A stretch of 29,045 bases of DNA, taken from a virus (lineage: Duplodnaviria; Caudoviricetes). Positions 11,979 to 27,608 of this stretch are shown here, piece by piece. Location: positions 1-29,045 of IMG/VR virus record IMGVR_UViG_3300025018_000442; one strand, given 5' to 3'. Every line of letters starts with the position of its first letter. Positions within the stretch are counted from its first letter, which is position 1. A program made the position numbers and the translations under genes. The notes below the pieces were generated by a model, which did not search any database, was not told the origin of the DNA, and saw nothing but the letters and a program-made list of their open reading frames with translations.

Positions 11979-12635
11979 TTAGTTGCGGCCTCCCACCATG
12001 TCGGGCATGACGACCGGCACCCCCTGCCGGGCCAAATCCATCAGGTGTTCGCGGTCCTCGTCGGTCACCACGCTGAATTTCAATTCCCCCTCGATCTTGA
12101 TTTTCAGTTTGCCCAGCAGCGCAGCCAGCAGGGTCCCCTCGGCCCGGGCCTGGCTCGCGTAAAGCTTTTCGTCGCGCTGGGCCCGGTCGCGCTTTTGCTC
12201 GTATTCAATCCGGTCTTTGGCGTTCTTGCCGTTCTCGTTTTTGAATCCCGAAACGATAAAGGTTTCCGCATCCTTCACCGTTTGCGCTGCCTCCATCACC
12301 TTGGCATGGAAAATCACATAGCGTTCATACGTCGTGCGCACAATCTGCGCGGCGTCGTTGGCCACCTTCTCCGTGCACCGCCGGTAGAACGCAAAAACCT
12401 TCGGTTTTCTCAAGGTTTCCGAGGCGATTTGCCCCGCGCTCTGCTCGGAATATCCCGCTTCCACGGCAGCGCGGGCGCATTGCCCGTGCTCCAGCATGCG
12501 CATCACAAACACCATTTCCCGGCGCGTGAGTTCTGCCACTCCCTCCGGCAGTTCCTTTATCCCGCAGGCGGCAAAACTACGCTCGATCTCCGGTAGCGTT
12601 AACTGCAGCGGGCAAGGGTTCTCGGTTTGACTCAC
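11979..12635 (-). CDS. terS: Terminase small subunit
   Basis: LTRREMVF..ARAAVEAGYS..A..IASETLRKPKV is the classic TerS HTH motif; abuts terL. Confidence 0.85.
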   Translation of the reverse strand: MSQTENPCPLQLTLPEIERSFAACGIKELPEGVAELTRREMVFVMRMLEHGQCARAAVEAGYSEQSAGQIASETLRKPKVFAFYRRCTEKVANDAAQIVRTTYERYVIFHAKVMEAAQTVKDAETFIVSGFKNENGKNAKDRIEYEQKRDRAQRDEKLYASQARAEGTLLAALLGKLKIKIEGELKFSVVTDEDREHLMDLARQGVPVVMPDMVGGRN

Positions 12636-12744
12636 GAGAACTACCGTGGGCCCGGCCAGCCTGTCGGCTCAATCGTGCCACTGTTCCCGTTTGCTCTCGT
12701 TTTAACTCGCGCTGTCTGTTGCGTCCCTTCGGTCAGAAAAGAGG

Positions 12745-12800
12745 GCCGAACTTGCGCTAAAGCCGACACCTGCAGCGCGGCTTAGCTCTGGCTGTTAGGC
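12745..12800 (+). mobile_element. Integron-type attC site 1
   Basis: GCCGAAC-TTGC-GCTAAAGCCGAC...GCGGCTTAGC-TCTGGCT-GTTAGGC: R''/L''/L'/R' boxes, extra base on the left arm, 56 bp. Closely resembles canonical aadA-type attC architecture. Confidence 0.8.
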
Positions 12801-13132
12801 TCCCGCGCTCGCAGCGTTGGCAGAACTAAGTCACGCATCATCTGCCGTGCTTCGACGTAAGAGAGCAGGTTCGTGCCCACTCGATTCGGCCCTTGCCTCG
12901 TGGCGCATAGATCAGAGCACACGCTATCAGGTAGCGGCCATCGTAGAAATTTCTCTGCCAGTTCATCGGCAAGTTTATCCATTGCGTCCGGCTTTAGTGG
13001 CACATCCAGTCGGAAGCTGCGCGGGGCTCCCGGCGTTGGTCCTTTGTCGCCGCAGTTCGCGCAGAATGTCGGGTCTTGTTCGCTGGCCTTGAATTTCTTG
13101 CAGGCCCAAGTTTTGTGTTTTTGCTTTTTCAT
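12782..13132 (-). CDS. Cassette A gene, hypothetical (N-terminal Cys cluster; C-terminal FLRWPLP..GTNLL domain)
   Basis: 116 aa; the last codons PNSQS* are read from attC1. Confidence 0.7.
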   Translation of the reverse strand: MKKQKHKTWACKKFKASEQDPTFCANCGDKGPTPGAPRSFRLDVPLKPDAMDKLADELAEKFLRWPLPDSVCSDLCATRQGPNRVGTNLLSYVEARQMMRDLVLPTLRAREPNSQS

Positions 13133-13141
13133 AAATTCAGA

Positions 13142-13198
13142 GCCTAACCAGTCGGTCCATGGGACGCGCTTTGCGCGTCCCTGACCTTAGTGTTAGCC
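13142..13198 (+). mobile_element. Integron-type attC site 2
   Basis: GCCTAAC-CAGTC-GGTCCATGGGACGCGC-TTT-GCGCGTCCCTGACC-TTAGT-GTTAGCC: 5-nt spacers, two unpaired bases (C, T) on the left arm, 57 bp. Confidence 0.9.
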
Positions 13199-13465
13199 CT
13201 ACCGCTGGCGCACATATAAGGTGAAGTTCCGAGGCGTTGGATCCGGCGCCCCCTTGTGCTCGTGGAATTCGCGCTCTTGCACGGTCCACTCACCGGGGAG
13301 GTGAGCGTCAATATCTTCCGAATGATAGCGCGGATTTACGATCCGGTCTCCTACCTGTGCGTGCAACAGATCGAGATTGAACGTTTGCCTTGCGTCTCCG
13401 ACGTCCATTCCAAAGTCGTCGACGGGCTGAATCCAAATGTGCAGTGGAAAGTAATCTTGTGGCAT
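13199..13465 (-). CDS. Cassette B gene, hypothetical
   Basis: 88-aa ORF exactly filling the space between core sites; a sampled 60-nt line (13321-13380) is 50% GC, lower than the phage backbone. Confidence 0.7.
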   Translation of the reverse strand: MPQDYFPLHIWIQPVDDFGMDVGDARQTFNLDLLHAQVGDRIVNPRYHSEDIDAHLPGEWTVQEREFHEHKGAPDPTPRNFTLYVRQR

Positions 13466-13474
13466 AAAAAAAGA

Positions 13475-13492
13475 GGCTAATGGTCGTTCGGC
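13475..13492 (+). mobile_element. Collapsed attC remnant (R'' and R' only)
   Basis: GGCTAAT-GGTC-GTTCGGC; the left box complements GTTAGCC (13192) at 6/7 positions and the right box complements GCCGAAC (12745) at 7/7. Confidence 0.6.
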
Positions 13493-13887
13493 GTAAGAAG
13501 GGGCATGACCGAAAGGTCCACTTTGCTGCCGTGGTCAAGGTAGAGATTCCACGCGCGCCGGCCGTGCGGCTTGATTGCGGCGCCGGTGGCGTCGTGCACG
13601 TCCTGCTGGCGTTCGCGCTCGTTGCGCAGGATCTGCTGCACTAGGTCGTCGTTGTCCGGAAACTGCCGGCGCGTAATGCCCTCGTAGTCGAGTGCCCCGA
13701 TGTGCTGCATCAGTGCGTCGCGCAGTTCCTCTGCCGTGACTGCGGCGTCTGTCCATGGGCATGCGATCAGGTCAAGGTCGGTTGTGACCGTGCCGTGGAT
13801 GGCCAAAGCATAGCCGCGGGTGCGTGCGACCTCGCACAGCCCGTGGTAGAGCGTCGCGTAGAAGGGGGCGCGGGTAGGTGGTTTCAT
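13477..13887 (-). CDS. Small nucleotidyltransferase-fold-like phage protein
   Basis: GYALAIHGTVTTDLDLIACPW resembles the hG[S/T]x(n)DxD motif; later VDLSVMP could give a third acidic residue; ATGA overlap with the upstream gene. Confidence 0.55.
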   Translation of the reverse strand: MKPPTRAPFYATLYHGLCEVARTRGYALAIHGTVTTDLDLIACPWTDAAVTAEELRDALMQHIGALDYEGITRRQFPDNDDLVQQILRNERERQQDVHDATGAAIKPHGRRAWNLYLDHGSKVDLSVMPLLTPNDH

Positions 13888-14591
13888 TGTGCTTTTACCG
13901 TCGCATTTTTGATCCATTCGATTCGCACCGCATTGGGCAGCCCCGGCAGGTGCGCTATAAAATCCCCCGGCTGCCACGAATACGGCTCGCGGCCGGTGCC
14001 TCCGTAAAGCGTGTGCGGGTAGGCATTGCACTGGCGCTGGGGTATCAGCTTTACCATTACCGCGCTGCGGTTCAGCCAGCGCTCCAGCCGTTGCAACAGC
14101 GCGGGCGATGGCGGTTCACCGCCTTGTTTCAGCCGGCCTACTTTTTGGGTGTAATCGGCGTAGTTCATGGCCTGCGACAATTCGATGTTCAGCGCGTCCT
14201 GCTCGTTGTTGGTGGGCCGGTCCCGGTGGGCGCATACCTCGCGCAGCAACGTTTCGATGGCCGGGCAGCGGCGCAACAGCATCACATCGCTTTGCAGTCC
14301 GTTGCCGTCTGCGGCCACCACCAGGTCGGCCGCCGGGTCGCACAGTTGCCGGGCGTCAATGGTGTGGTTGGTGATCAGTGCGTCCGTGCCGGTAAACAGC
14401 AGCCACTCGTCCGCGGCCATGCTTTGCAAAGCGGCCAGCCAGCCCTCGGGCCGTTGCCAGCAGGTCACCGGGGCAGTCAGTCCTTGTTCGATCAATTCAA
14501 AGCCCCAGCGCGCGGCATAGGTCCGTTTGCCAGGCAGCGTCAGGTCGGCCAGGGCTTGGTAATCGTTGGAATGCTGGGTCAGCAGTTTCAT
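13884..14591 (-). CDS. Glycosyltransferase, GT34 (MNN10/GMA12)-like
   Basis: YAARWGF, EWLLFTGTDALITN, DGNGLQSDVMLLR, NEQDAL, PQRQCNAY, WQPGDFIAHLPG in the family order. Confidence 0.8.
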   Translation of the reverse strand: MKLLTQHSNDYQALADLTLPGKRTYAARWGFELIEQGLTAPVTCWQRPEGWLAALQSMAADEWLLFTGTDALITNHTIDARQLCDPAADLVVAADGNGLQSDVMLLRRCPAIETLLREVCAHRDRPTNNEQDALNIELSQAMNYADYTQKVGRLKQGGEPPSPALLQRLERWLNRSAVMVKLIPQRQCNAYPHTLYGGTGREPYSWQPGDFIAHLPGLPNAVRIEWIKNATVKAQ

Positions 14592-15912: not shown

Positions 15913-16545
15913 TCAGCACGGCGCTTCCTCCCTCGGGTGTTGGTTCACGCGGTCGATCTCGCGGGCCTCGGGCGGGATCCATCCAAGGCCCAGCGCGCGC
16001 AGGATTTCGAGCTCGCTTTCGCCGCGCCACACTTCGCCGTCCAGATATTCCACCGTGGGTTTGGCACTGCCGGCCCCGGCCGGTTTGGTTATGGCGTAGC
16101 GGCCGCCGCGCATCAGCCCCTTGTAGGGGGCAAAGTGGTAGCCCTTTTGCTTGGCCAGTTCGGCCAGCCACACGTTGTGCTCGCGGCTGCCGGTCATGGC
16201 CAAAAGCCGCATGCCAAAGTTGCCGGGTATGTAGCCGGCCAGGTCATTGATCGCCGTCCGTGCCATATACAGGTCCACCTGCACGCCATTGGCCAGCAGC
16301 AGCTGCACAATCTGTGGCCCGCTTTTGATCACGCGGGTGTTGGGGTTGGCCCGCACCCGCGCTTCGATCTCCGGGCGCAGGCCGTCCTTGGGCAGCAGCA
16401 CCAGGTCAATGTCGCTGCAGTGCGGCCGCTGCCGGCGCACACTGCCGGCAATCTCGATCTGCGCACAGTAGCCGGCCAATTCGCTGCGGATCAGTTCCGC
16501 AATTTTTTGCGCCGTGGCCAGTGGGATGGTTTGCCCCTGGCTCAT
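15913..16545 (-). CDS. polX: Minimal family X DNA polymerase (palm + thumb only)
   Basis: AGSVRR..SDIDLV, VQVDLY, MTGSREHN, ELEILRALGLGWIPPEARE; 210 aa from ATG 16545. Confidence 0.88.
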   Translation of the reverse strand: MSQGQTIPLATAQKIAELIRSELAGYCAQIEIAGSVRRQRPHCSDIDLVLLPKDGLRPEIEARVRANPNTRVIKSGPQIVQLLLANGVQVDLYMARTAINDLAGYIPGNFGMRLLAMTGSREHNVWLAELAKQKGYHFAPYKGLMRGGRYAITKPAGAGSAKPTVEYLDGEVWRGESELEILRALGLGWIPPEAREIDRVNQHPREEAPC

Positions 16546-16886
16546 GTTTCCACTTCCTCCAGTGCTTCCGCTGCATTGTGGCGCGGCGGTGCCACCTCGG
16601 CGGCCAGCACGCGCAAAAATCGTATTTCCCCCTTGTGCACCCCGTGTTGTATGTAGGGCCGTGTGGCCAGTTCGTAGTCGATCTTTATCCCCCGGCCGCG
16701 CTGGGCCTCGCGCTCCAGATAGTCGCACACCGTGGGGTCCTCGGCCTCGCAATTCCAAAAACTGGGCTGGCGGTGGCTGTCGCTCGTGGCGATGGTCAGC
16801 AGGATCTTTTTCACCATGCTGCCCGGCACGTAGGCTGGGCTGGCTTCCTTCACCACGCCACCGGTTATCGTGCCATGGTTCATCAA
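16542..16886 (-). CDS. ssb: Single-stranded DNA-binding protein-like (OB fold)
   Basis: MNHGTITG..FWNCEA..GRGIKIDYELATRPY pattern and acidic tail. Confidence 0.6.
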   Translation of the reverse strand: MMNHGTITGGVVKEASPAYVPGSMVKKILLTIATSDSHRQPSFWNCEAEDPTVCDYLEREAQRGRGIKIDYELATRPYIQHGVHKGEIRFLRVLAAEVAPPRHNAAEALEEVET

Positions 16887-17947
16887 TCAGCCCTCCTTTC
16901 CAGCACCTGCTTGACCATGGCCGCGATTGCCGCCGGGTGGATGCTGTCGAGCACGTGGCAAAACTGGCTGCGCGCGCAGTGCGCCTGCGGCCACATTTTC
17001 GGCCGGCCATGGTGGCAGCAGCCGGCGCACTCTCCCCTGCCCTCGATCGGCAGCACCGTGGGGTAGTATTTTACCCGCACAATCGCGGGAAAACTCCCAT
17101 AGAGTGCCACGCAGGGGATGCCCAAAGCCCCGGCCACATGCACCAGGCTCGAGTCCGGGCACACCAGGCAATCGCAATCGGCGGCCAGCGCCATGCTCTG
17201 GCGAAAATTCGGGGCCGGGTTTGCCGCCGGCAAAACCTGCACGCGGTCGCTCAGGGCGGCCGTTATCTGCACCGGGTGCCGGCCCGGCTCGCCAAACAGG
17301 CGCAGTCCGCACCCCATGTGCAGCAGCACTTTCAAAAGGTTGTGCACCTGCGGGTAGCTGCGCACGGGGCTGCTGGCGGCCAGCTGCACCCCAACCACGT
17401 GCTTGCCCTTCGGCCGGGGCCACTTCAGCAGCGCGGCCGCCTTTTCAAATTCGCTCAGCCACAGTTCGGGCTGCCGGTCGGGGATGCATAAAAACGGAAA
17501 TTTTCTCCAAAAACACTCCAGCGCGTGTTCCGTGGCCGGATGCTCGGCGTCTTCCACCGTGCCCTCCAGGCTCACCACCGCGTCGTAGCCGCGCAGCAAG
17601 TCAGTGCGCAGCGGGTAGTCGATACATTCGTGCACAAAGTGCAGGCCTTCCAGCACGGTGGCATTGCTTGGCACGGTGCACACACTCACGCGCTGGCCCA
17701 GCTGGTGCAGCGCGCGCAGGATGGGCGTCAGCATGATCAGGTCCCCCAGTCCACCGGGCCGGATTACCAGCACGTTTTTTCTTTTCTTGTCCCATTCCCG
17801 CAATACGGGGGCCGGATGCAGTTCCACCCGGCGGGGATTCTGGGCCAGCCACAGGCCGGCATTCACCGTGTCAGCCAGCCAGCTGCCCCGTGGCAACTGC
17901 CGGCCCCGGCCAATCTCGATGGGTTCGTTTACGATCAGCGTGTGCAT
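16883..17947 (-). CDS. Glycosyltransferase family 9 (ADP-heptose:LPS heptosyltransferase-like)
   Basis: VLVIRPGGLGDLIMLTPILRAL and DSSLVHVAGALGIPCVALYGS; C-terminal CxxC..C cluster. Confidence 0.88.
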   Translation of the reverse strand: MHTLIVNEPIEIGRGRQLPRGSWLADTVNAGLWLAQNPRRVELHPAPVLREWDKKRKNVLVIRPGGLGDLIMLTPILRALHQLGQRVSVCTVPSNATVLEGLHFVHECIDYPLRTDLLRGYDAVVSLEGTVEDAEHPATEHALECFWRKFPFLCIPDRQPELWLSEFEKAAALLKWPRPKGKHVVGVQLAASSPVRSYPQVHNLLKVLLHMGCGLRLFGEPGRHPVQITAALSDRVQVLPAANPAPNFRQSMALAADCDCLVCPDSSLVHVAGALGIPCVALYGSFPAIVRVKYYPTVLPIEGRGECAGCCHHGRPKMWPQAHCARSQFCHVLDSIHPAAIAAMVKQVLERRAD

Positions 17948-17951
17948 GGCT

Positions 17952-18806
17952 TCAAATCGCAAAAGGCAGGGTCTTGCATTTGAATCCACAGGCCTGCCGG
18001 TGGCCTCCACCGCCATATTTCACTGCGATGGGGGAAAAATCTATCTCCGGTTTGCCCGGCACTCCGTAGAGTGATATCCGCCACTGGCCCTGGCCGTCGT
18101 AGCCAAATCCAAGGCACCCTTCGTGCTCCGGTTTTAGACCGGCCGTAAACAAGTGGCTGTTGTAGCGCGCATGGTTGCAGGCCAAAAAGCACCGGCCTTC
18201 AAAGTTCACGGTGAATCCGTTGTGCTTGATAATGGATTCGTTTTGCTTGCCCTGGGCGTAGGCCACGGCGCGGCCGTCCTTCAACAGCGAAAGCACAACA
18301 GCTGAGCGTTTGCCGGCGGTCAGCAATTCCTGCCATAATGCCGGCGTCAGTTCGCAACTGCGCAGGGCGTGCTGAAACAAATCCGTGTCTGGGTCGCGCT
18401 TGTCCCAGATATCATATTCGCCGGCCAGTCGCACGGCGTGCGGTTCTTCCACGGTGCGGTCGTAATATTGGGCCTTGGTCGGCAAGGCAAAGCCGTTGGG
18501 CTTATTAAACCACTGCCAGGCTAAGCGGCAAGCGGCCACTCCGTCGATGCGGTAGCCGGGGATTGTTTCGGGGTATTTTTCAATCGCACTTTTGTGGTGG
18601 TCTATCCACACCAAGCCGGGGTGCTGCATCAAACCATCCACGCTTATGTCAATCATGTAGAGTGTGGCCGCAATGTGCACCTCTGGCACCGGCTCGCCAT
18701 AGTCCCAGCCGATATATTCCGCAGTTTCACCAAAGGCTTGCCGGGCGATTTCCCGCGAAAACAGGCCGTCAAAATCGGCCCGGTGATAGATTACAATCGT
18801 CTTCAT
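17952..18806 (-). CDS. DHH/DHHA1 family phosphoesterase
   Basis: YHRADFDG, MIDIS, WIDHHKS, YDIW, GGGGHRQACGF. Confidence 0.9.
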   Translation of the reverse strand: MKTIVIYHRADFDGLFSREIARQAFGETAEYIGWDYGEPVPEVHIAATLYMIDISVDGLMQHPGLVWIDHHKSAIEKYPETIPGYRIDGVAACRLAWQWFNKPNGFALPTKAQYYDRTVEEPHAVRLAGEYDIWDKRDPDTDLFQHALRSCELTPALWQELLTAGKRSAVVLSLLKDGRAVAYAQGKQNESIIKHNGFTVNFEGRCFLACNHARYNSHLFTAGLKPEHEGCLGFGYDGQGQWRISLYGVPGKPEIDFSPIAVKYGGGGHRQACGFKCKTLPFAI

Positions 18807-18810
18807 AAAT

Positions 18811-19692
18811 TCATGCGTGTTTCCCGAAATAGCGGCACCATTCGCGGCCGGCCCATTCTCCCATGGGCACGGGCACCCCGTTGCCAATCTGCCGGTATTG
18901 TTCCTGCCGGGTGCCGGCAAAGGTAAAGGAGTCTGGCACTCCCTGCAGGCGGGCGTATTCCCGCACGCTGTAGGGGCGCACGCCTTTTTTGTAGCGGTTA
19001 TCAGCCACCAGCCGGGTGCTCACATCCTTGGCGTAGTGCGCCACACAGGTGGGGGCCACGTCGCCGCGCGCGGCATCGCTCACAATGGGTTTGTCCCGGT
19101 AGCGGCCGCGCAGCCGGCGGTAGACATACGCGGGAATTTCCACGTCCGGTTCGCTCTCCAGTATCTCGACCAGTGGCACGGCGCGCGTGGCCTCGGGCGG
19201 CCGCCAGGCAAAGGGCCGCCGGCTGCCAAAAATTATCAGCCGGTTGCGCTTCTGAGGCAGCCATAGTTCGGTGGCTACCGGGCAAAACACACTCACGTAG
19301 TAGTCGGGCAGCTTGGTCATGGCCTCCATTACCACGGTGAATTTTTTCATGCCGGGCACATTCTCCAGCAGGTAGCCTTCGGGCCGGGCAATCGCCAGCA
19401 GGCGAAAAAAGTGCAGGTAGAGTTCGTCCCCCGTGCGCACCCCGTGGATGTCCCCGATGGGCGAATATTTCGTGCACGGGTAGGTCGCGGCCATCACGTG
19501 GCAGCCCGGCTGTTCGGCCACCAGTTTCTGTTTCACATCGGCCTGAATTACGGCGTGGGTGAAATTGCGGCGCAAAGTCGCGCAGCATGTCGGGTCGATC
19601 TCCAGGCTCTGCTGCACGTCCAGCCCCCCGCGGTGCAGGCCCAGGTCAAACAGGCCGGCCCCGGAAAAATAACTGTTCACGCGGATGCTCAT
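18811..19692 (-). CDS. DNA (cytosine-5) methyltransferase, orphan
   Basis: FSGAG (motif I), YPC (IV), ENV (VI), QKRNR (VIII), ARLQG (IX), YRQIGNGVP (X). Confidence 0.95.
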   Translation of the reverse strand: MSIRVNSYFSGAGLFDLGLHRGGLDVQQSLEIDPTCCATLRRNFTHAVIQADVKQKLVAEQPGCHVMAATYPCTKYSPIGDIHGVRTGDELYLHFFRLLAIARPEGYLLENVPGMKKFTVVMEAMTKLPDYYVSVFCPVATELWLPQKRNRLIIFGSRRPFAWRPPEATRAVPLVEILESEPDVEIPAYVYRRLRGRYRDKPIVSDAARGDVAPTCVAHYAKDVSTRLVADNRYKKGVRPYSVREYARLQGVPDSFTFAGTRQEQYRQIGNGVPVPMGEWAGREWCRYFGKHA

Positions 19693-26483: not shown

Positions 26484-27608
26484 TCAATTGCCGCTTGGGC
26501 GCAGTGCGGCCCATTTGCGGGCCTCCGCGCGGGTGCGCAGGTTCAGGTAATGGCGGTGGATCATGGCTTCGCTGGTGCCGGCCTCGCGGGCGGTCAGGGC
26601 ATCGCTGCCGGTCAGCACGGCCCGGTTGCTGATAAAGGTATGCCGGCATATATCCGGGGCCCAGTGCACCTTTGCCGCGGTGGCGATTTCCTCGCGGCCG
26701 TGCCGGCTCAGCGGGGGCACGCTCGCGGGTGCTCCGGCGGCCTTCAGCCAGGCCAGCGCGGCCGGCATCAGTGGCACGGTGCGGTTGGCCCGGCCCTTCA
26801 ATTTTCCACCCTCGATGCGCGCAAACGGGTGGCGGCCGTAGTGCAGCCGGGTTTCCTCGATCTCGCTGGGCCGGGAACCGGTCCACAACAAAACGGCCAA
26901 AGTGCCCAGCCATTTGCCCTGGCGCATGGTCCGGGCGGCCGTCAATACGCGCGCGGTTTCCTCCACATTAAACACGGGCTTGCGGCCATGGGGCACCTTG
27001 GGCCGGGCCAGTCCCTTCAGCGGGTGGTAGGGTATCAGCTGGCGCTCCATCAGCCACGTGCAAAAGGCACTCACGGCATTCAAATCATTGCGGCGGGTCT
27101 GGGGGTGGGCCTTGCGGGCGCGCAGTGGTTCCACGCTCGCGCGGGATATGTCGCCCAGGTTGGTCACGCTGGCCAGTCGCACCCAGAGCCAGAGCCGGGT
27201 GGATAAATTTTTCACGGTTTCATCGGCCAGCCCGTCGTTGCGCCGGTCCTCCAGAAACGCCTCGATCTGCGGGGCGATCGGTTGCACGGCGGCCGCGTGG
27301 CCGGTCACCTGTTCGGTGTAAAGGTTGGCCAGCTGCAGCAGGCTTGTTTCCAGGTGGCCGGCCAGGTCCAGCTTGCGCCGCGCGGCGATGGCGTCGGCTC
27401 TCACGTTTGCATCGAAATTTACCCCCGCCATTCCCTCTGCAGCAATCTGCCGGTTAAGTTCTCGCTGGTAATTTTTTGCCTCCTCCAAATTCAAAAAGTG
27501 CTTGCGCATTTTGCGGGGACGGCCGCGGCTGTCGCGATTTACAAAGTCCAGATATACCACTTGCCACATGGGCAGCGGTTTGGTGATTGCGTAGAGCTTA
27601 GCGCTCAT
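26484..27608 (-). CDS. int: Tyrosine integrase
   Basis: TGSRPSEI (R), KLKGR (K), DICRHTF, AGTS, HRHY (Y); N-terminal arm-binding and core-binding regions; next to att. Confidence 0.92.
   Translation of the reverse strand: MSAKLYAITKPLPMWQVVYLDFVNRDSRGRPRKMRKHFLNLEEAKNYQRELNRQIAAEGMAGVNFDANVRADAIAARRKLDLAGHLETSLLQLANLYTEQVTGHAAAVQPIAPQIEAFLEDRRNDGLADETVKNLSTRLWLWVRLASVTNLGDISRASVEPLRARKAHPQTRRNDLNAVSAFCTWLMERQLIPYHPLKGLARPKVPHGRKPVFNVEETARVLTAARTMRQGKWLGTLAVLLWTGSRPSEIEETRLHYGRHPFARIEGGKLKGRANRTVPLMPAALAWLKAAGAPASVPPLSRHGREEIATAAKVHWAPDICRHTFISNRAVLTGSDALTAREAGTSEAMIHRHYLNLRTRAEARKWAALRPSGN

Follow-up and report, generated by a model that had tools for sequence, protein, structure and literature searches.

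The window, i.e. the whole stretch of DNA that was analysed, is a linear viral record of 29,045 bases with an estimated completeness of 74%. All genes called by family matches in the window are located on the minus strand. In this reading direction, the first part runs from an integrase-like gene through accessory and replication genes to a glycosyltransferase gene and ORF C, and the second part, from the attC locus described here through the genes for the terminase small subunit and the likely large subunit to the portal, capsid and tail genes. The family matches bear out an earlier note, made from the letters of the DNA alone, which had placed the locus at the early/late boundary: it is located between the replication and accessory genes and the terminase. 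The terminase small subunit gene (11979..12635, minus strand; PF03592, phrog_51) opens the packaging block 110 bp from the first attC site. The gene at 26484..27608 (minus strand; phrog_1) has weak Xer-like matches only and no TIGR02249 match; its product is phage tyrosine integrase-like and not an integron integrase. The accessory enzyme genes are located at 13884-14591, 15913-17010, 16883-18016 and 18811-19692 on the minus strand. GT34-like and GT9 glycosyltransferases, a DNA polymerase X-like protein and a C5 methyltransferase form an unusual set for a small phage, possibly serving DNA or surface modification. TerL relatives were at best 26% identical, with no attC covariance model match among them, and the search for capsid homologues gave no host placement.

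The locus contains two attC sites and a remnant, all on the top (plus) strand: attC1 (12745..12800), attC2 (13142..13198) and an 18-bp sequence with two core boxes in inverted orientation, separated by 4 nt (13475..13492). Cassette A (12795..13192, plus strand, 398 bp) consists of the reversed ORF A and the attC2 hairpin, which stands ahead of the gene in the reading direction. Cassette B (13193..13486, plus strand, 294 bp) consists of the reversed ORF B and a collapsed site. The earlier note had arranged six 7-mer boxes in nested complementary pairs and derived both cassettes from them; all six boxes lie and pair as it claimed, and the recomputed lengths are the same. The boxes of cassette A are exact complements, and those of cassette B have one mismatch (T for C). 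In viral arrays the frequencies of the three boxes multiply to approximately 3e-4, which makes chance an unlikely origin of the complete nested pattern. ORF A (12782..13132, minus strand, 116 aa) starts with an ATG 9 nt past the core box and has its stop codon inside attC1. ORF B (13199..13465, minus strand, 88 aa) also starts 9 nt past the box, and its stop codon immediately precedes attC2. ORF C (13477..13887, minus strand, 136 aa; PHROG 35913) has a C-terminus that runs through the last core box.

The sites were searched for with a covariance model, R1, built from 36 attC sites of bacterial loci with intI. The source set comprised 80 bacterial loci with IntI1 relatives, from which attC sites were extracted by a script (88 of 91 on the strand opposite to intI); the 36 aligned sites were taken from 57 distinct ones. 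As a control, 132 of 133 matches in the 80 intI loci, the same loci that had supplied the training sites, were on the expected strand. R1 was run over the whole window without filters and gave six matches with E-values up to 10. The strongest was attC2 (45.2 bits, E 2.7e-8), a canonical 57-bp site with 5/5 spacers, followed by attC1 (23.1 bits, E 0.0023), the spacers of which are 4 and 7 nt long instead of the usual 5 and 5–6 nt. The third match was the minus strand of attC2 (12 bits), and the remaining matches in the window scored below 9 bits. The check by a covariance model, done with our own model and not that of IntegronFinder, thus upheld both hairpins of the earlier note, and its 18-bp remnant had no R1 match. 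attC1 and attC2 are real attC-type sites. Of the 149 viral and 80 bacterial sites passing the pairing score, attC1 is the only one with the 4/7 spacer pair. A strict motif script was also tried; it missed attC1 and gave nine matches versus seven in shuffled DNA, and the covariance model was used instead. The Rfam search returned two weak, unrelated matches. Only short chance matches were obtained by blastn with attC1 against plasmids and with attC2 against phage records, and two viral attC sites compared with phage records matched only the P1 class 1 integron and short chance sequences.

In both full sites the bottom strand folds better than the plus strand. For attC2 the bottom strand gave −17.1 kcal/mol (z −5.4) versus −15.0 for the plus strand. 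For attC1 the respective values were −10.9 kcal/mol (z −0.7) and −10.0, i.e. the shape is right and the stability no greater than that of shuffles. The remnant does not fold (−0.7). Extra-helical bases are on the left arm of the plus strand in both sites; attC2 has two of them, and in attC1 the first is an A. Given its poor fold and odd spacers, attC1 may be decayed. The locus is a CALIN by definition, as two attC sites lie within a few kb of each other and the record yielded no integrase. It works like an integron cassette array and departs from classical cassettes in the direction of its genes. No TIGR02249 match, and hence no integron integrase, was found in the 74% complete record, and the gene could be in the missing part. 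No attI-like head precedes attC1 at the top-strand 5' end, as the search within 1.5 kb upstream revealed no G|TT box complementing the attC1 left box.

As the sites are oriented along the top strand, ordinary cassettes would carry plus-strand genes, and ORFs A and B are on the minus strand. Judged from sequence comparison, both read against the direction of the attC sites and are members of phage gene families. The motif scan of viral contigs gave at least 129 loci of a total estimated at approximately 570. R1 was run on 71 of the first 80 viral loci (9 overlapping duplicates were excluded) and gave 177 matches. The survey used 166 of these (8 duplicates and 3 isolated weak matches were removed), together with two from the locus L055 and the two of the window. 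In the loci listed, 119 distinct viral segments between adjacent sites were classified by their longest ORF as reversed (60), forward (4) or unclear (55); bacterial loci with at least two matches yielded 60 segments, 57 forward, 1 reversed and 2 unclear. The call by the longest ORF is crude, hence the many unclear segments. The counts support reversal as a general feature of viral arrays. No integron integrase scored over the cut-off in the window record and 31 other array-bearing viral records, seven of them at least 90% complete. In the loci L174/L179 and L187 the attC matches are on the strand opposite to the motif match or on both strands; these are possibly two divergent arrays. At L055:2860-3400, a reversed attC array faces a convergent tyrosine recombinase gene that scores far under the cut-off for integron integrases.

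Since box complementarity does not separate crossover at G|TT of the right box from mirror crossover at the left box, shared cassettes were compared. An earlier comparison had included three pairs and was confounded by repeat-like hairpins and missed sites. Different viral contigs share 11 near-identical internal stretches, and in nine of these one end or both coincide with G|TT on the top strand. Both ends are at G|TT in two stretches (L188/L232, 352 bp, and L223/L288, 545 bp), and these two are whole cassettes with the hairpin ahead of the gene. The stretch shared by L202 and L234 starts at the left box and belongs to a family of near-identical hairpins; one stretch of the 11 has an end at neither box. 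The cassette with an ORF C-family gene, front hairpin included, is near-identical from crossover to crossover in L067, L068 and L069, and the DNA outside it is unrelated. By analogy with these cassettes of other viral contigs, the boundaries 12794/12795, 13192/13193 and 13486/13487, placed at G|TT in the earlier note, appear to be correct. The crossover at G|TT is that of the classical chemistry, in which IntI strongly prefers the bottom strand (PMC5027507). In 19 of the 48 groups of viral sites in the loci listed, candidate attI-like sequences were seen at the 5' end of the top strand, a count made with no shuffle control. The array heads of L204 and L225, at the same end, consist of two core boxes 4 nt apart (7-4-7), like the remnant, a spacing one base tighter than that of attI1 in L074.

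ORF A encodes a phage-type modular protein that combines a Cys-rich N-terminal piece (alone in P0030) with a widespread domain of approximately 50 aa (duplicated in P0005). It has 37 homologues, and its family was found in 56 viral loci; no Pfam, PHROG or NCBIfam family was assigned, and the longest plus-strand ORF across it has no homologue. Only three of the 56 loci have an R1 match (L016, L023 and L055), and in L023 and L055 a reversed site is directly ahead of the ORF A-family gene. ORF B is predicted to encode a small beta-rich protein (model pLDDT 69.7). It has six homologues, and third-position changes dominate in this frame in all five relatives compared; no Pfam, PHROG or NCBIfam family and no viral fold match at E≤0.001 were found. 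In all seven other loci, representing approximately four distinct phage contexts, the ORF B relatives have no attC. On both sides of such relatives, the start-codon region is present as a short direct repeat, 13 bp long in L058:890-1200 and L078 and 9 bp long in L059:705-990 and L081, with L079 listed as a further case. The genes look as if they had been inserted with duplication of the start of the next gene. Cluster look-ups and Atlas searches for ORFs A and B returned unnamed clusters and "hypothetical protein" only. Neither gene is an obligate cassette gene.

The GC3 values of ORFs A and B are 0.60 and 0.63, respectively, versus 0.71–0.85 in six backbone genes including ORF C, which fits recent arrival or foreign cargo. 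In the viral contigs searched, neither cassette A nor cassette B turned up in another context. The suggestion that they are captured integron-type cassettes holds for the foreign cargo and the G|TT ends; their antisense genes of phage families set them apart from ordinary bacterial cassettes. Cassette A is intact, and its predicted excision product is a circle of 398 bp. For cassette B, excision by itself is likely no longer possible, and the 294-bp circle also foreseen in the earlier note is unlikely to arise by the hairpin route because the site of this cassette is reduced to 18 bp.

The earlier note had further proposed that attC1 is a resident attC of the phage that serves as a gene-capture hotspot. 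In favour of residency, no attI-like head precedes attC1, removal of both cassettes does close one attC, and the in silico empty site folds to −15.8 kcal/mol versus −10.9 for the filled one, a gain expected from the box match itself. On the other side, no relative was found in which the site is empty or has other contents (the TerL relatives being at best 26% identical), the outer boxes are frequent ones (14 and 11 of 168 viral sites in the loci listed), and two rival readings compete with this one. The resident site is plausible, with chances a little better than even; the hotspot is a suggestion drawn from one genome. At L067:2414-2978 a single cassette with an ORF C-family gene is enclosed in a closed attC between TerL and head genes. 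The outer boxes of this site close exactly and occur 1 and 0 times among the 168 viral sites of the loci listed. The L067 site, the cleanest example of a landing pad that was found, shares with attC1 the 4-nt left spacer, which is present in 5 of 127 viral and 2 of 74 bacterial sites of the loci listed; the coincidence was noticed post hoc. At L076:318-740 one small reversed gene is enclosed by an attC1-like site with 4/7 spacers and by another, degenerate site, the group being located between an HTH-like gene and head-joining and portal genes; here the search pattern itself had selected for the spacer. That search for attC1-like sites gave four loci, among them L294 (the same contig as L076) and L293 (canonical spacers), and two others were read as chance matches. 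L233 was considered as an empty closed site and rejected because of a matching box 64 bp upstream.

Taken together, the locus is probably, with considerable room for doubt, a reversed phage attC array, into which an IntI, likely that of the host, inserted cassettes at G|TT of a likely resident attC upstream of the terminase genes. The sites, their polarity, the strand of the genes, their foreign codon use and the G|TT breakpoints of other viral arrays were observed, and no integron integrase was found in the record; the enzyme, the residency of attC1 and the following order of events are inferred. During infection or lysogeny, host IntI would recombine the folded minus strands of a reversed cassette and attC1. 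Since the hairpin is in front of the gene, the bottom strand, which is predicted to fold and recombine, is the coding strand, and the cargo would come to lie in line with the phage genes, matching their one-way (minus) order. Cassette B would have been inserted first and then fixed by loss of its hairpin, making it the likely older one; cassette A would be a later arrival, predicted to be still mobile. New genes would thereby be appended, in the direction of expression, where the run of early genes ends. Related published observations are insertion into attC in V. cholerae lacking attIA, although attI is preferred (10.1101/2020.11.24.395434), activity of phage attC sites as IntI1 substrates, five of six tested sites being active (PMC9892861), slippage deletion of attC hairpins and IntI insertion at GWT sites (10.1101/2022.09.11.507474), and a truncated attC in GES-1 (PMC8876359).

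The best surviving alternative, which is less probable and still a serious contender, is a decaying array of four cassettes, i.e. an ORF-less one with attC1, A, B and a domesticated ORF C, with no resident attC. The first insertion would then have been at G|WT or at an attI-like site since lost, and the match of the outermost boxes would be a coincidence, for which the probability is approximately 8% for that pair alone. A degenerate near-complement of the attC1 left box at 12727..12733 (plus strand; C replaces G before TT, with one further mismatch) pairs with this box in the plus-strand fold and is a possible start of the ORF-less mini-cassette. In L076 a perfect box precedes the attC1-like site by approximately 30 bp, and closure of that array is missed by one base. 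The ORF C family is cassette cargo in three of five loci (L067–L069), and the last box may accordingly be the former start of ORF C; both GWT insertion and loss of hairpins by slippage are documented (10.1101/2022.09.11.507474). Against this account, ORF C has backbone-like codon use (GC3 0.80), overlaps the upstream stop codon and has no trace of a front site, the outer box GCCGAAC occurs once on the plus strand of the window, and L067 closes on rare boxes at a comparable position.

Compared with this, a mirror arrangement is improbable. In it the remnant would be an attI-like double-stranded site of the minus strand, the cassettes would be of the gene-then-hairpin type, and crossover would occur at the left boxes (13480/13481, 13147/13148 and 12750/12751) with preference for the other strand. 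The minus-strand layout indeed resembles the textbook one, with a two-box site, an ATG 9 nt past the box and a stop codon at the next box, and the 7-4-7 arrangement heads the arrays L204 and L225. However, the shared cassettes bring the front hairpin and not the rear one, the attI-like candidates in 19 of 48 groups (no shuffle control) are at the end opposite to the remnant, the crossover here would be at A|TT, and IntI strongly prefers the bottom strand (PMC5027507).

It is highly improbable that a piece of a bacterial integron was captured en bloc and is now inert, as bacterial cassettes are forward in 57 of 60 segments, both gene families occur in viral contigs, and the junctions fall within the terminal parts of ORFs C and A, with no junk flanks; the low GC3 of ORFs A and B and the captures of this kind described for Vibrio and Shewanella phages (PMC9892861) speak for it. 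That the hairpins arose by chance or are terminators between small phage genes is scarcely credible given two adjacent same-strand R1 matches with E-values of 2.7e-8 and 0.0023 and no terminator-like site found in 12500-14000, even though the attC1 fold is no better than shuffles and the plus strand of the window has eight short two-box patterns with an upstream complement.

The preferred reading, a reversed array loaded by IntI, may be compared with known systems. Qi et al. (2023) found 17 phage CALINs, which, like our locus, have at least two attC sites and no intI; such sites recombined there with attI1 under IntI1 (PMC9892861). Phage TJE1 has three R1 matches on the strand of its annotated genes, i.e. 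forward, whereas in the window the genes are antisense. Neither a class of reversed genes nor a resident acceptor site is reported in the main text of that paper (PMC9892861). Classical cassettes of class 1 and chromosomal integrons share with the locus the attC anatomy, the complementary end boxes and the G|TT crossover. Unlike them, the locus has neither intI nor a head attI found, a gene reversed behind its hairpin, phage-type cargo and the 4/7 spacers of attC1. SALINs and GWT insertions are attC units far from the integrase that use IntI in trans, as would be the case here (10.1101/2022.09.11.507474), and by analogy attC1 could have first arrived through an insertion of this type. The insertions described there are in bacterial genomes, whereas the window has two nested cassettes in line with the phage gene order. 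In the blaGES-1/aacA4 fusion most of the hairpin (91 bp) was lost and both genes were kept (PMC8876359), as at the remnant; the latter, in contrast, joins a cassette to a possible phage backbone. Clusters of attC in phages are thus already known, and the reversed layout was not found in the literature searched. Likewise, that search, which left most subscription journals outside, yielded no paper on reversed phage cassettes or on a resident acceptor attC of a phage.

Phage mosaicism is usually ascribed to homologous and illegitimate recombination. With approximately 570 stored viral stretches estimated for just one attC motif, arrays of this kind are not rare, and the locus adds to them the geometry of a closed attC and the lead of the 4-nt spacer. 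Two questions are raised, namely, why the gene is reversed and whether the 4-nt spacer makes an attC an acceptor. Integrons carry anti-phage cassettes (10.1101/2024.07.02.601719). We tentatively suggest, as a possibility rather than a likelihood, that phages have their own pool of back-to-front cassettes and that in one group of them a resident attC with the 4-nt spacer replaces attI next to the head genes and is loaded by host IntI with phage genes oriented for expression; ordinary host cassettes, anti-phage ones among them, would end up antisense and silent, and polarity would act as a firewall between the two pools. If the preferred reading is true, a host enzyme acting by site-specific recombination would let some phages acquire and shed small accessory genes, and cassette polarity would separate phage cassettes from the host pool.
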